A stretch of DNA of 12,119 bases from a virus (IMGVR_UViG_3300029862_000048:1-12119); one strand, 5' to 3'. Shown: positions 1-12,119, numbered from the stretch's first letter. Notes: generated from the letters alone by a model not told the origin. Made by a program: numbers and translations.

Positions 1-99
1 GCTATAGCCAAAAACGGCAATAGCCCCAGGAGCAACAGAAAGCCCCATAGCGGCGCGTTAGCGCGGCAATGGGCAAATACACAAAGCGGCCTTTTGGAA
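1..99. repeat. 99-nt sequence identical to 12021-12119; terminal overlap of a circular molecule (assembly k-mer overlap) or, less likely, a flanking direct repeat
   Basis: Base-by-base identity of window start and window end (gctatagccaaaaacggcaatagcccc...cggccttttggaa). Confidence 0.9.
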
Positions 100-105
100 C
101 GCCTT

Positions 106-131
106 AAACGGCTTTCTAGAAGGCCGTTTTT
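106..131 (+). terminator. Near-perfect 24-bp palindrome AAACGGCTTTCTAGAAGGCCGTTT followed by T-run (TTTTTCTAT); candidate intrinsic terminator of the head/packaging operon, or a protein-binding palindrome
   Basis: Arms 106-116/119-129 pair with a single G-U, GC core cggc/gccg and a U-tract immediately 3'. It lies about 100 nt past the stop of the last gene of module 2 (in circular coordinates). Confidence 0.55.
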
Positions 132-175
132 CTATGCCTACGTTCTTGCAAATCACTTTGGCGTGGTTTTAGCAA

Positions 176-207
176 TGTAAGAACGTAAGAATGTAAGTAC
201 GTAAGAA
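176..207 (+). promoter_or_regulatory. Four tandem 8-bp repeats YGTAAGWA (GTAAG at 177, 185, 193, 201) abutting the -35 element; putative operator array
   Basis: Exact 8-bp periodicity read directly. The same word in opposite orientation (CTTACATN x2-3) recurs at 4911-4926, 5501-5515 and 9580-9595, each upstream of an operon or gene start. Confidence 0.55.
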
Positions 208-213
208 AAATAG

Positions 214-243
214 TTGACACGTTGCGCGTTTTGTCGTTATAAT
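214..243 (+). promoter_or_regulatory. Near-consensus sigma70 promoter: -35 TTGACA (214-219), 18-bp spacer, -10 TATAAT (238-243)
   Basis: Both hexamers are perfect consensus. The six-frame ORF at 214 begins on the TTG of the -35 box and is therefore an artefact, and the real CDS starts at 310. Confidence 0.75.
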
Positions 244-309
244 GGACAATGTAAGCAGCAAGCAGACAAAAGCGCGCCGGTTTGCGCGATGCGAAAGAAG
301 GTAGGAGCT

Positions 310-9276: not shown

Positions 9277-9605
9277 GTACGTTGTGCAAGGCGTTCCGGG
9301 TAGCGGCCTGGAATGCTTGCCAGGCGGACAGACGGCGGGGCTTGTCACCCAAAGGCTAGAGCCTGGATTATTCGGGGAAGCAGACCAAGGCGGCAGCTGC
9401 TAGCTATCTCCTTCAATTCATTTCTTCATGGCTAGAAGTTGCGCTATTCGGAGCGTCTTTCACAGCGGTAACCATGACCCGAACGCCCCCAGGGCGATAG
9501 CGGAGCAGGCTCCCGCGTAATCACAGAGCCCAGGTTTTTAAACCTCTCCGGGGTTTCCCATAGGAGGGGGGTAAGACTACTTACATGCTTACATGATTAC
9601 TTGAA
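9277..9605. other. 330-bp ORF-free spacer between HNH and terS; candidate cos/packaging-initiation region
   Basis: Contains an 8-bp palindrome GCAGCTGC (9397-9404), a GC hairpin cgccc/gggcg (about 9483-9496), the inverted repeat AGGTTT-TT-AAACCT (9531-9544), a G6 tract (9566-9571) and the motifs GTAAG (9571-9575) plus CTTACATG x2 (9580-9595). Confidence 0.35.
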
Positions 9606-9620
9606 ATGGGGGTAGATAGC

Positions 9621-9971
9621 ATGGAGATTGACAAGGATAAAATCAAGCGCGCAGAGACGCGCAAGCTCAACAAGATTGCCAAGGCCGTGCCGGAATCCAA
9701 GAAGGCCGTAGCGGACAGCTTGACCCGTGAACTTGTGTTCATGGCCTGCACTCTTGAGGAATTGCGCGCGGACGTTGACGAGAAAGGCGCGGTTGAGCTT
9801 TTCAAGAACGGCAAGCAGGAAATGTTTAGGGAAAGCCCGGCGCTAAAGAGCTACAGCACGCTTATTCAGCGCTACAGCCTTCTTTACAAGCAGCTTTGCG
9901 AGCTGTTGCCCAAGGAAGAGGCAAAGGGAGCGGAAGACGAATTGCAAGCCTTCCTTGCCCAGGCGGTATAG
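9621..9971 (+). CDS. terS: Terminase small subunit, P27 family
   Basis: About 116 aa. The segment ...ELVFMACTLEELRADVDEKGAVELFKNGKQEMFRESPALKSYSTLIQRYSLLYKQL... matches the P27-type TerS pattern. The ATG at 9621 with a GGGGG RBS is preferred over the upstream ATG at 9606, which lacks an RBS. Confidence 0.75.
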   Translation: MEIDKDKIKRAETRKLNKIAKAVPESKKAVADSLTRELVFMACTLEELRADVDEKGAVELFKNGKQEMFRESPALKSYSTLIQRYSLLYKQLCELLPKEEAKGAEDELQAFLAQAV

Positions 9972-9983
9972 GGGGCGCGTGCC

Positions 9984-11624
9984 GTGAACTGGATACGCGC
10001 ATACCTGGACAAGATAGAAGCCGGGGAAATCGTAACGAGCAAGCGCGTTAGGAAGATATACCAGCGGCTAGCCTACGACATGGACAACCCCGGCAAATAT
10101 CGCTTTGACGAAGCGAAGGCAAACCGGCCTATCGAGTTCATAGAGCGCTTTTGCAAGCACTCCAAGGGCGAGTGGGCGGGTCAACCCGTGCGCCTGGAGC
10201 TTTTCCAAAAGGCCTTCATTAGCGCGCTTTTCGGTTTTGTCGATAGCGAAACAGGCTTGCGCAAGTACCGCGAAGCCTTCTTTATGGTTGCGCGCAAGAA
10301 CGGTAAATCAACCATGCTTGCGGGCATCGCGCTTTACCTTCTTTTGGCAGACGGCGAAGCCGGGGCGGAGATCTACAGCGTAGCCACGAAGAAAGACCAA
10401 GCAAAGATTATCTTTGACGAAACGTGCAACATGGTTGCCCAAAGCCCGCAACTACGGAAGCACATAAAGAAGCGCAAGACCGATTTGTATTTTTCGGCTG
10501 CTATGTCAAAGATTCAAGCCCTGGGCAAGAACAGCGACACCCTGGACGGCTTGAACGGTTCAGGAATCATCATTGACGAGCTGCACGGCATCAAAGATAG
10601 AAACCTATACGAGGTTATGAAGCAGTCGCAGAGCGCTAGGCGGCAACCCCTGCTAGTGATGATTACCACGGCGGGAACCGTGCGCGAGTGCATCTTTGAT
10701 GATATGTACGACTACGCTTGCAAGGTTGTAGACGGCACCATAAACGACCCTACATTTTTGCCCATCATCTACGAGCTGGACGCTAAAGCAGAGTGGACAA
10801 ACCCGGCGGCATGGTTCAAAGCCAACCCAGGACTAGGGCGCATAAAGAAGCTAGAAGACCTTGTAGCCAAAGTGGAGCGCGCGAAGCAAAGCCCCAAAGA
10901 CCTTAGCGGCATCCTGTGCAAGGACTTCAATGTCCGGGAGACGCGCTATAACGCATGGCTGGACTTTGACAGCATCAACAACGAAGAGACATTTTCGCTT
11001 GAAGACTTCCGAGGGGCTTACGCTATCGGCGGCGCGGATTTGTCGCTAACGACCGACCTAACGTGCGCAACGGTTCTAATGATGCATCCGGAAACGCACA
11101 GGCGATACGTACACCAAATGTATTGGCTACCGGAAGAGAACTTTGCCCAGCGTGTAGAGCAAGAGAAGATACCCTACGACAAATGGCATGAAGCGGGATT
11201 GTTGAGACTTTGCAAGGGCAACACCATCGACTATAGCGACGTAACGGCCTGGTTCCTCGAAATCGTCCGAGAACATGGAATAACGCCCTTGTGGGTGTAT
11301 TACGACGCTTGGTCAGCCCGGTACTTCGTGGAAGAGATGGCCGGGTATGGGTTCAAAATGGAGCGCTGCATACAAGGTGCGCGCACGCTCTCGCTGCCTA
11401 TGCAAAACCTGGGCGCAGATCTACAGGCAAAAAAGGTGGTTTATAACAACAACCCTATTTTGAAATGGTGTCTCACAAATACCGGCATCCAGGAAGACCG
11501 AAACGGCAACATCGTTCCGGTTAAGAACAGCAGCGCGAAGCGGCGCATAGACGGCACGGCAAGCCTACTTGACGCTTACGTGGGGCTTTATGAGCACTAC
11601 AACGAGTTTCTAAACGCACTGTAG
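9984..11624 (+). CDS. terL: Terminase large subunit (Terminase_1 family ATPase plus nuclease)
   Basis: 546 aa, GTG start after an AGGGGGCG RBS. Walker-A-like MVARKNGKSTMLAGIALY, Walker B IIIDELHG, C-terminal nuclease region with conserved acidic residues. Confidence 0.9.
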   Translation: MNWIRAYLDKIEAGEIVTSKRVRKIYQRLAYDMDNPGKYRFDEAKANRPIEFIERFCKHSKGEWAGQPVRLELFQKAFISALFGFVDSETGLRKYREAFFMVARKNGKSTMLAGIALYLLLADGEAGAEIYSVATKKDQAKIIFDETCNMVAQSPQLRKHIKKRKTDLYFSAAMSKIQALGKNSDTLDGLNGSGIIIDELHGIKDRNLYEVMKQSQSARRQPLLVMITTAGTVRECIFDDMYDYACKVVDGTINDPTFLPIIYELDAKAEWTNPAAWFKANPGLGRIKKLEDLVAKVERAKQSPKDLSGILCKDFNVRETRYNAWLDFDSINNEETFSLEDFRGAYAIGGADLSLTTDLTCATVLMMHPETHRRYVHQMYWLPEENFAQRVEQEKIPYDKWHEAGLLRLCKGNTIDYSDVTAWFLEIVREHGITPLWVYYDAWSARYFVEEMAGYGFKMERCIQGARTLSLPMQNLGADLQAKKVVYNNNPILKWCLTNTGIQEDRNGNIVPVKNSSAKRRIDGTASLLDAYVGLYEHYNEFLNAL

Positions 11625-11640
11625 AAGGAGGGGGCTAGAA

Positions 11641-12027
11641 ATGGCCGGAAAACAGGTTCTAAAGGATAAGAAGGTAACCGTTTACAAGTACGTGGATGGA
11701 ACGGACGCGGAAGGGTTCCCGGTTAAGGCATACATGCCGATACACGCACAGCCGACGGTATGGGCCTACTTTAAGCAACTAAGCGGAAGCCTCTATTTCG
11801 CCAGCGCCCAGACGAACGTAAGGGAAGACTGCTTGTTCAGGGTGAATTACACCAAGGCGCTAAAGCGGGCCTATGCCGACACGTACCGTGTACTGTATGA
11901 CGGAATCCTCTACAAAGTCACGCGGATAGACCCATACGAGGGATACACGCGGGATTTGGCCATTTACTGCACGGCCACGACCGACAAGGCGACGGACACA
12001 ATCCCATACGACCCCAAGAAGCTATAG
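11641..12027 (+). CDS. Head-tail adaptor / head closure protein (Phage_H_T_join-like)
   Basis: 128 aa with GGAGGG RBS. The C-terminal pattern YRVLYDGILYKVTRIDPYEGYTRDLAIYC fits the head-tail joining family signature (rIxydgrxyxIxxvxdxxxxxrxlxlxc). Confidence 0.65.
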   Translation: MAGKQVLKDKKVTVYKYVDGTDAEGFPVKAYMPIHAQPTVWAYFKQLSGSLYFASAQTNVREDCLFRVNYTKALKRAYADTYRVLYDGILYKVTRIDPYEGYTRDLAIYCTATTDKATDTIPYDPKKL

Positions 12028-12119
12028 CCAAAAACGGCAATAGCCCCAGGAGCAACAGAAAGCCCCATAGCGGCGCGTTAGCGCGGCAATGGGCAAATAC
12101 ACAAAGCGGCCTTTTGGAA
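12021..12119. repeat. Second copy of the 99-nt terminal sequence (identical to 1-99)
   Basis: Exact identity with the window start. It begins inside the last codons of the adaptor gene. Confidence 0.9.

Follow-up and report, generated by a model that had tools for sequence, protein, structure and literature searches.

A probable satellite-plasmid in the Bacillota clade of capsid-forming phage satellites: a 12-kb circle with its own head genes and a ParA-type backbone

Phage-inducible chromosomal islands of the capsid-forming type (cf-PICIs) are phage satellites recognized by capsid, portal, and protease genes, an HNH-TerS-TerL packaging set, a connector and a closure protein, a regulator and a primase, the lack of tail, holin, and lysis genes, and an integrase with att-flanked residence in the chromosome. 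The capsid of their Escherichia coli prototype is T=4, and packaged cf-PICI DNA is found in viromes (10.1101/2025.02.11.637232). A plasmid-like form was recently reported: TG54, found in 30 isolates of Vibrio crassostreae as an extrachromosomal circle of 15.8 kb, carries the cf-PICI head set together with parA and repA, has neither tails nor an integrase, and was named cf-PISP by its authors (PMC13230959; Nat Commun 2026, preprint October 2025). Vibrio cf-PISPs are stably carried, the 30 isolates having been sampled 4 years apart, and relatives of TG54 are reported in Vibrio alone (PMC13230959). Here, we analyze the sequence IMGVR_UViG_3300029862_000048, hereafter the window (12,119 nucleotides, one strand), which is probably a phage satellite that forms its own capsids, is maintained as a circular plasmid at low copy number, and represents the Bacillota counterpart of the Vibrio cf-PISPs. 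It carries every hallmark of a cf-PICI listed above except the integrase and the att-flanked chromosomal residence. An earlier annotation made from the DNA alone (the sequence-only reading) had described a head-only, cf-PICI-like satellite with a plasmid backbone in place of the integrase, and this description holds. Its further statement, that an episomal, ParA-partitioned satellite of this kind had never been described, is contradicted by the Vibrio report. A full-text literature search for “satellite-plasmid” returned no further report of such an element.

The window closes on itself, and the whole element is therefore visible, as the sequence-only reading had claimed. Its two ends are identical over 99 nucleotides (1-99 = 12021-12119), which gives a unit of 12,020 bp:

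1..99, no strand: assembly overlap, duplicate of 12021-12119 and closure mark of the 12,020-bp circle

Copies of the element in public assemblies were traced by exact-protein look-up (copies and relatives are numbered from L001; W denotes the window). L001 (ERZ27306454, k141 contig, 12,161 bp) contains the unit with no mismatch and an overlap of 141 nt, and L002 (ERZ27256572, k119 contig, 12,139 bp) contains it with one mismatch and an overlap of 119 nt, so that the same circle is closed in three assemblies. Because the overlap length equals the assembler k in each of them (99, 119, and 141), the terminal overlap is the assembly signature of a circular or concatemeric template, and a biological repeat or att site is ruled out. 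In addition, a Logan contig holds 11,783 nt identical to the window unit, unclosed and broken at an internal repeat. Every substantial open reading frame (ORF) of the window lies on one strand. The element appears to come from a Gram-positive (Bacillota), gut-type community, to which we infer its host to belong.

ORFs were annotated against Pfam, PHROGs, and NCBIfam. Eight of them encode head assembly and DNA packaging:

5605..6831, + strand: portal protein (PF04860, 1e-53)
6828..7406, + strand: S78 prohead serine protease (PF04586, 5e-30)
7411..8673, + strand: HK97-fold major capsid protein (PF05065, 2.5e-36; TIGR01554, 2.5e-48)
8694..8969, + strand: gp6-like head-tail connector, Ad1 (PF05135, 6e-6; TIGR01560, 2e-11; phrog_40, 8e-14)
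8989..9276, + strand: HNH endonuclease, packaging cofactor of HK97-type terminases (PF01844, 4e-10)
9606..9971, + strand: TerS, P27/Terminase_4 type (phrog_1066, 2e-34); likely start ATG 9621, giving 116 amino acids (aa)
9984..11624, + strand: TerL (PF03354, 3e-37, ATPase; PF20441, 2e-34, nuclease)
11641..12027, + strand: Hc1, head completion/closure protein, SPP1 gp16-like (PF05521, 6e-14; TIGR01563, 4e-6)

The full head and packaging set that had been proposed is thereby recovered: portal, protease, capsid, gp6, adaptor, HNH, and TerL by direct matches, and TerS by phrog_1066, by its position between the cos region (see below) and TerL, and by relatives, 3 of 11 aligned family members matching PF05119 (Terminase_4) where the window protein has no direct Pfam or NCBIfam match. 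Hc1 is the tail-facing adaptor and a hypervariable allele. All 14 testable genes of the element, ParA included, are under purifying selection (dN/dS, 0.05 to 0.5, with relatives at dS 0.2 to 1.6), and ParA, the ribbon-helix-helix protein, the 389-aa protein, and the primase-polymerase described below are constrained like the head genes. The N-terminal delta region of the major capsid protein holds a variable GAQ repeat (window 7601-7636), made of 9-bp coding tandem units in a region that is presumably cleaved off; its copy number and sequence differ among close relatives (L060, L142, and L144).

Among window ORFs of ≥50 aa, Pfam, PHROGs, and NCBIfam return no tail, holin, endolysin, integrase, or recombinase signature, and tblastn of the relatives' tyrosine recombinases against the window finds nothing. 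No CI-type repressor gene was found in the window either, in agreement with the gene absences listed in the sequence-only reading, and no tail or lysis gene, either of which would have spoken against that reading, occurs within the 12,020 bp. A tRNA scan and Rfam (E≤1) likewise return nothing from the window, and a Bacillus subtilis-type dif site for Xer-mediated integration was not found in it.

The head genes place the element within a Bacillota clade of cf-PICIs. Scanning one genome per GTDB species with TerL yielded 56 loci, mostly 64 to 74% identical and annotated as Bacillota except for one unclassified and one Saccharibacteria-binned metagenome-assembled genome (MAG); none of these genomes holds a member of the window's own subclade. 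Nearly all loci share the unusual gene order portal, protease, capsid, gp6, HNH, TerS, TerL, and Hc1, which is also the order published for the Bacillus/Clostridium/Staphylococcus cf-PICI group (10.1101/2022.09.08.507074). Phages are more distant: the best TerL identity among 3,166 matching phage records is 57%, cultured phages reach at most 54%, and the best phage match of the capsid protein is 35% identical. Neither deposited phages nor PLSDB plasmids yielded a megablast match to the whole unit. In a neighbor-joining tree of TerL, the satellite-order loci form one clade, with a long branch to three prophage-order loci. Since the head and packaging proteins group with satellites apart from phages, and the window TerL nests with island-type loci, the structural proteins do not cluster with complete temperate phages, an outcome that the sequence-only reading had named as fatal to it. 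A ParA-type fragment in a “Candidatus Saccharibacteria” MAG (L052; CAMNFE010000058.1) is most likely a binning error and not an indication of the true host.

Most of this clade is integrative. Within 6.5 kb upstream of portal, 17 chromosomal loci on contigs of 50 kb to 1.3 Mb carry tyrosine (6) or serine (3 to 4) integrases, Cro/CI-type repressors (in 15), and D5/VapE/Prim-Pol primases. The 7 kb downstream of their Hc1 genes hold housekeeping genes (Clp protease, phosphofructokinase, GMP synthase, and sigma factors), and no tail family is among the families listed around the 17 loci. These chromosomal clade members are islands, not prophages.

Where the chromosomal relatives encode an integrase and a repressor, the window carries a plasmid-type backbone:

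214..243, + strand: sigma-70 promoter, TTGACA-18-TATAAT, 12/12 consensus; sole consensus promoter in the element, ahead of the backbone operon
736..1494, + strand: small ParA ATPase, 252 aa (PF13614, 5e-55; NCBIfam ParA_partition, 6e-34)
1500..1829, + strand: ribbon-helix-helix (RHH) protein, 109 aa; candidate ParG/omega-like centromere-binding protein and repressor
1843..2046, + strand: HTH_17 excisionase/MerR-superfamily DNA-binding protein, 67 aa (PF12728, 1e-11; TIGR01764, 2e-5; L001 gene call)
2033..3202, + strand: 389-aa protein of a very rare family, with winged-helix domains in its confidently modeled part; candidate iteron-binding initiator
3205..4212, + strand: stand-alone primase-polymerase (Prim-Pol), 335 aa (PHROG primase, 8.5e-53; NrS-1 helix-bundle domain, 9e-18)

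The TTG at 214 is part of the -35 box and no start codon. ParA has a KGGVGKT deviant Walker A motif, lacks an N-terminal helix-turn-helix (HTH), and aligns over the whole AAA_31 domain, which makes it type Ib-like; its dN/dS is 0.09 to 0.21. The RHH protein is moderately supported (PHROG CopG-like, 5e-4; profile match to the RHH structure 2kel, E=0.002) and displays a charged linker and a basic N-terminal peptide that is kept even in 17 to 30%-identical homologues. Thus, of the type Ib ParA/ParG pair proposed earlier, the small ParA is strongly supported and an RHH partner is present, with “ParG” as a moderate identification of the latter. The HTH_17 protein fills the AlpA-like slot, as had been suggested, and belongs to a family other than PF05930 AlpA itself. 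Prim-Pol comprises an AEP core with DxD and SGRGFH motifs and an NrS-1-type helix bundle and has no helicase domain, consistent with its previous description as a stand-alone enzyme.

The 389-aa protein has no match in Pfam, PHROGs, or PADLOC, and a search of its family profile against PDB sequences is empty. In an AlphaFold2 model (overall pLDDT, 66), residues 130 to 389 reach 70 to 90, and the predicted winged-helix domains in this part would be compatible with an iteron-binding replication initiator. The replication module contains no RepA-family match, which makes the initiator analogous to RepA and not homologous. The gene was missing from the list in the sequence-only reading, as were those of the GIY-YIG-like and 145-aa proteins described below.

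The same head clade is found with at least four backbones: a full integrase; ParA; ParA with a 182- to 231-aa tyrosine recombinase; and a rolling-circle Rep. More than 20 elements are of ParA type (L026, L033, L040, L052, L060, L062, L063, L067, L076, L077, L080, L082, L098, L099, L109, L124, L140 to L142, L144 to L146, and L148 to L150), and these are found on contigs of ≤14.3 kb with one exception of 16,384 bp (L150). Eight distinct ParA-type members self-close with k-type overlaps (L033, L040, L060, L062, L098, L142, L146, and W). In genome assemblies, contigs of >15 kb hold 0 of 4 ParA-type members versus 33 of 48 other members (Fisher p ~0.005). The 389-aa family, specific to the window subclade, comprises 12 clusters among 5.8e9 proteins, the longest contigs being 12.2 to 12.9 kb, and its look-ups lead to complete syntenic elements of 12.6 to 12.9 kb. 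An IMG/VR scan with patterns of this family gave no confirmed match; diverged homologues in the IMG/VR elements L060, L062, and L063 were found through TerL. Across the contigs of the 5.8e9 proteins, GTDB genomes, IMG/VR, and JGI metagenomes, the subclade with ParA and the 389-aa protein was never seen with chromosomal flanks. Strong circumstantial evidence from assembled sequences thus points to an extrachromosomal life style. In one 12.5-kb contig with the same head module, a REP_ORF2-G2P (rolling-circle type) protein replaces ParA or integrase (L023:2681-3514).

The noncoding DNA of the window holds candidate sites for replication and partition:

4924..4988, no strand: candidate origin between Prim-Pol and portal, with three 22-bp iterons in tandem (ATTTGCAAACCTAGCCAAAGTG) and a purine/AT-rich tract after them
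146..169, no strand: inverted single iteron-like copy, 90 to 92% complementary to 4930-4993, just upstream of the operator array
5430..5455, no strand: inverted single iteron-like copy upstream of the head operon
174..205, + strand: four GTAAG boxes with an 8-bp period that abut the -35 box; candidate RHH-protein operator and centromere
4908..4926, - strand: two GTAAG boxes (CTTAC on the + strand), 8 bp apart, adjoining the iterons
5494..5517, - strand: GTAAG-type boxes (CTTAC/CTTGC on the + strand) with an 8-bp period, upstream of portal; likewise in L060
9580..9600, - strand: three GTAAG-type boxes with an 8-bp period, directly upstream of TerS

Tandem repeats of 22 bp occur at the same position with another sequence in L060, which has two sets of three, and in L062, which has three copies, and the 389-aa proteins of these two elements are 38 to 47% identical to that of the window, in parallel with the change in iteron sequence. 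PICI origins carry iterons too. About 100 nt downstream of the iterons, a purine-rich tract (AGAAAAGGGGGTAGAGAGGGGGAAAGGGGATATAGGGAAGTGG, window 5085-5130) lies within the lowest-GC part of the element and could be an unwinding or priming region.

The box arrays show a comparable pattern. A GTAAG array ahead of the backbone operon is also observed in L140, L142, and L144. In L062, whose RHH protein is about 26 to 30% identical to that of the window, the box is AAGACAGC, present three times before the backbone operon, twice before portal, and twice before TerS, with 7 of its 8 copies inside the arrays. An unbiased scan for arrays of 7- to 9-bp period recovered the backbone-operon array in 6 of 6 subclade members, and the sole array in coding DNA is the capsid-gene GAQ repeat. 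In omega/delta of pSM19035 and ParG/ParF of TP228, short repeat arrays serve as centromere as well as operator, and several operons are preceded by omega sites. The covariation of the arrays found here with the RHH protein, their 8-bp period, and their placement before more than one promoter resemble what is known of ParG and omega-type RHH proteins, and the arrays are candidate binding sites for the RHH protein.

A further site is indicated in the gap between HNH and TerS:

9277..9605, no strand: noncoding cos region, with probable cleavage at ~9520-9535, upstream of the hairpin 9540-9572

A C-rich/G-rich hairpin is conserved within this 330-nt gap and shows compensatory changes (window 9540-9572), and five to six independent contigs of relatives start 9 to 22 nt upstream of it. 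L140 ends in 35 nt of Illumina adapter (AGATCGGAAGAGCGTCGTGTAGGGAAAGAGTGT..., L140:12827-12861) at the equivalent of window ~9520-9523; such adapter read-through implies that many reads ended at one fixed physical DNA terminus in the HNH-TerS gap. L145 is a unit-length linear contig of 13,057 bp whose two ends abut at window ~9527. By alignment with these relatives, the cos site of the window itself would lie at ~9520-9535. The ends of L123 and L124 were rejected as cos ends, L123 being the circular contig L146 and L124 starting downstream of the hairpin. At the other end of L140, the first ~95 nt are AT rich and unlike relatives and may be a chimeric join. The family is thus recovered both as circles and as cos-ended linear units, as would be expected of a self-packaging element with a circular intracellular form.

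Comparison with close relatives reveals a mosaic. The block 5250-11,620 shows 76 to 91% nucleotide identity to five close relatives, none of which matches the Hc1 gene at the nucleotide level. At the protein level, identity to three relatives is 57 to 58% for Hc1, 83 to 86% for gp6, and 90 to 100% for the other head proteins. L060 shares a head module of 92 to 94% identity and a backbone of 38 to 71%. In cf-PICIs, experiments of the Penadés laboratory showed that the adaptor and connector set tail choice and that near-identical islands differ in exactly these genes (10.1101/2025.02.11.637232); by analogy, the divergence of Hc1 and gp6 observed here matches known determinants of tail specificity.

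The slot between Hc1 and ParA carries variable cargo, namely, DUF3846 and small ORFs in L140, L142, and L144 and a nuclease-like gene in the window:

310..732, + strand: GIY-YIG-like homing-endonuclease-type protein, 140 aa (phrog_314, 3e-15; PF01541, weak; PADLOC HEase, 6e-4)

Its start is fixed by AGGAG-ATG and by the L001 gene call. PADLOC on the cargo and unknown genes returned this weak homing-endonuclease match alone and no defense system. The gene lies precisely where the swapped Hc1 allele meets the backbone; nuclease genes are reported to mark genetic-exchange boundaries (PMC10448857). The virome criteria of the Penadés laboratory accept a “GIY-YIG endonuclease” instead of an integrase in cf-PICI candidates, and elements like the one described here may have been catalogued already, with no comment on their maintenance.

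Two further features lie outside these modules:

4348..4785, + strand: 145-aa protein of unassigned function (phrog_26783, unknown function, 6e-8)
70..82, - strand: 13-mer GGGTATTTGCCCA, core of a ~73-nt repeat, with further copies at 4223-4235 and 5328-5340

The 145-aa protein is not kept in L060 or L062. The ~73-nt repeat spans window 4184-4256 and 5289-5361 and, inverted, ~45-120; it is noncoding, lies after operon ends, and is kept in L062. Its core occurs in three unique copies versus 0.25 expected, a fourth match being the duplicate in the terminal overlap, and a k=31 assembly of the window element (L003) breaks at this repeat. A structured RNA was considered for it and rejected, as it shows no supported fold and no covariation.

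On these grounds, a life cycle can be proposed for the element. The sigma-70 promoter at 214-243 would drive an operon comprising the cargo nuclease, ParA, the RHH protein, HTH_17, the 389-aa protein, and Prim-Pol. Replication may start from the iterons at 4924-4988, with the winged-helix protein binding them, Prim-Pol priming, and host helicase and polymerase being used, and ParA and the RHH protein would segregate the copies, the GTAAG arrays serving as operator and centromere. Neither the head operon, which runs from portal to HNH, nor the packaging operon with TerS, TerL, and Hc1 has a consensus promoter, and box arrays lie ahead of both, so that these operons are probably off or activator dependent until a helper arrives; the late genes would stay silent until a helper phage infects or is induced. 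The element would then build its own small HK97-type head, and HNH, TerS, and TerL would cut concatemers at cos and package one 12-kb unit. Finally, gp6 and Hc1 would finish the neck, and a siphovirus-type helper would supply tail and lysis, Hc1 and, less so, gp6 being the putative swappable tail-matching parts. That the element is a plasmid, uses a helper phage, and has a small capsid is inferred from the gene content and sites described above.

A competing account, which we consider unlikely, is that the window is an ordinary integrative cf-PICI caught in its excised, replicating, or packaged form, integrated by a host recombinase or an unrecognized protein and carrying ParA as an accessory. 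Such a life style is that of most of the clade, an induced island would also yield circular and cos-ended linear contigs, and both the 389-aa and the 145-aa protein lack an assigned function. Small recombinases do occur nearby, as catalytic-domain-only tyrosine recombinases (182 to 231 aa) between HNH and TerS in the sister-clade elements L033, L040, L145, and L146 and elsewhere in the wider group:

L033:3804-4352; L040:5275-5832; L145 (reverse complement):12115-12810; L013:6038-6613; L017:8774-9322: short tyrosine recombinase, sister clade

These could be multimer resolvases, integrases, or both. An identical small recombinase occurs in the 12.65-kb circle L013, which stems from the isolate Clostridium sp. 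K13, and in the 24-kb MAG contig L009; L017 carries one, with no ParA, inside a 209-kb contig. Integration therefore appears possible in the wider group, and a “plasmid only” statement is limited to the recombinase-free subclade of the window. For that subclade, however, the integrative account has to contend with a window in which neither a recombinase of any family nor a B. subtilis-type dif site was found, with the consistent lack of chromosomal flanks, with a 389-aa protein whose predicted fold is winged helix and not recombinase, and with purifying selection on ParA and the RHH protein, which lead the sole strong operon. A similarly low probability attaches to a nonlysogenic, coinfecting satellite virus like the Streptomyces MiniFlayer, with no or transient carriage and a ParA that organizes replication or packaging. 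The missing integrase and CI-type repressor would fit it, as would the recovery of several relatives as packaged cos-ended linear DNA and as IMG/VR viral contigs; yet it is hard to make sense of a complete par operon, its operator arrays, and an iteron replicon when vertical maintenance is lacking, the late operons have no constitutive promoters, four ParA-type contigs of bulk metagenomes fall into the bins of bacterial MAGs, and the Vibrio cf-PISPs of the same layout are stably carried.

It is very unlikely that the window makes up one part of a split (multipartite) phage or phage-plasmid whose tail and lysis genes lie on a constant coresident partner replicon. In favor of this, its head module is complete and self-sufficient and tail functions are wholly absent; but the chromosomal clade members are stand-alone islands beside host genes with no linked tail module, and the swapping of the Hc1 allele between near-identical elements is the signature of matching different, independent helpers. 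Scarcely credible, in turn, is a cryptic plasmid with a decaying prophage head module of no present function. Phage-derived genes are common on plasmids, capsid genes on Clostridioides and Spiroplasma plasmids being examples, but decay is at odds with 14 of 14 testable genes being intact and under purifying selection, with gene order and sites kept in more than 20 elements, and with defined cos ends that indicate active terminase cleavage.

Several observations nevertheless weigh against a plasmid-borne satellite. The window subclade is known from metagenome assemblies alone, from which its presence as an episome in cells is deduced, and replicative concatemers or virion DNA joined at cos can also assemble as circles. 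What was sampled of some relatives was clearly linear packaged DNA, and part of the circle signal could stem from particles. L150 (ERZ1034962 NODE-563; 16,384 bp = 2^14) is the sole subclade contig longer than one unit; its readable 12.6 kb, by itself a complete unit, starts and ends inside the GIY-like gene, and the contig is most simply a ~1.3-unit wrap-around. The RHH assignment is moderate in strength, and the suggested initiator role of the 389-aa protein draws on a generic winged-helix fold and on covariation. A search of Hc1 against phages detected no homologue and gave no helper lead. In addition, no recognizable master repressor was found in the window subclade, where a Cro/CI-type HTH_3 repressor stands beside the integrase in 15 of 17 chromosomal relatives (L004 to L050). 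Whatever silences the capsid genes of the window subclade must therefore differ from the chromosomal relatives, and the induction logic of the element is guesswork.

Going beyond this single element, we tentatively raise the possibility of a widespread, so far unrecognized Bacillota lineage of satellite-plasmids, independent of Vibrio, in which integrase and CI were swapped for ParA, RHH, and an iteron/Prim-Pol replicon, and in which a single omega/ParG-like RHH protein, bound to the 8-bp box arrays ahead of the backbone, head, and packaging operons, might be both centromere binder and the master switch that holds the capsid genes off until a helper comes. Satellite-plasmids were first proposed in 2025-26 from one marine genus, and the same solution now appears in Gram-positive gut-type bacteria, which would make the switch from island to plasmid a recurrent evolutionary move and not a Vibrio curiosity. 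Satellite censuses that require an integrase, as well as plasmid and virus classifiers, mis-file such elements. The clade also offers a comparative system, in which one head module is combined with integrase, ParA, small-recombinase, or rolling-circle backbones, and testable sites, namely, the 22-bp iterons and GTAAG arrays, the cos site at ~9520-9535, and Hc1 as an adaptor that can be swapped. A self-packaging, tail-borrowing, multicopy element could be an efficient gene shuttle in the gut.

Among known systems, several share one part of this design. Phage-plasmids (31- to 36-kb Clostridioides difficile records; P1 and N15 types) also combine structural genes and partition on a plasmid replicon, but they are complete phages of ≥30 kb with tails and lysis, and a search of the window capsid protein against PLSDB retrieved such distant phage-plasmids alone, at ≤30% identity. 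The plasmid state of satellite P4 and pDolos of Shewanella demonstrate that a phage satellite can persist as a plasmid; unlike the window, P4 has an integrase, has no capsid, portal, or terminase, and remodels P2 capsids. The EPIPs of Mycolicibacterium (PMC12822802) were rejected as relatives in view of their serine integrase and tape-measure gene. ParF/ParG of TP228 and delta/omega of pSM19035 resemble the window in a small ParA with no N-terminal DNA-binding domain followed by a small RHH protein, in the flexible basic N-terminal tail of the latter, and in repeat arrays of 7- to 8-bp period before promoters. This similarity is at the fold level only, the partition function of the window being read from sequence, and the window arrays also precede phage head and packaging operons, for which TP228 and pSM19035 have no counterpart.

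The Firmicutes cf-PICIs (10.1101/2022.09.08.507074; PMC10085698) are the closest kin by their head genes, with TerL identities of 64 to 74%, morphogenesis genes followed by hnh-terS-terL, a size of ~12 to 15 kb, a primase-type module, an excisionase-type HTH, and neither tails nor holins. They are chromosomal and use a tyrosine or serine integrase with a Cro/CI-type repressor, where the window has ParA, the RHH protein, and an iteron replicon instead. By life style, the closest described element is TG54, likewise a small circle (15.8 versus 12.0 kb) with a cf-PICI head set, parA, and a replication function and with neither tails nor integrase, for which the same combination of plasmid inheritance and own capsids on borrowed tails is proposed. 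The two differ in several respects. TG54 is documented in isolates (30), whereas the window element is known from metagenome assemblies alone. Its replicon uses RepA, in contrast to Prim-Pol, a novel winged-helix protein, and 22-bp iterons in the window, and the TG54-type Stl-like regulator, ProQ/FinO-like gene, and head-module tyrosine recombinase are absent from the window, the last being paralleled in the sister-clade elements L033, L040, L145, and L146. The head genes of TG54 belong to a Gammaproteobacterial capsid clade and those of the window to a clade of another phylum, the Bacillota; since the latter nest in the Bacillota clade, common descent of the plasmid habit with Vibrio is unlikely, TG54 having been compared by its description. 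The window element is thus, judging from its gene content, probably a Gram-positive variant of the cf-PISP kind, not the first of that kind, and probably one of independent origin.

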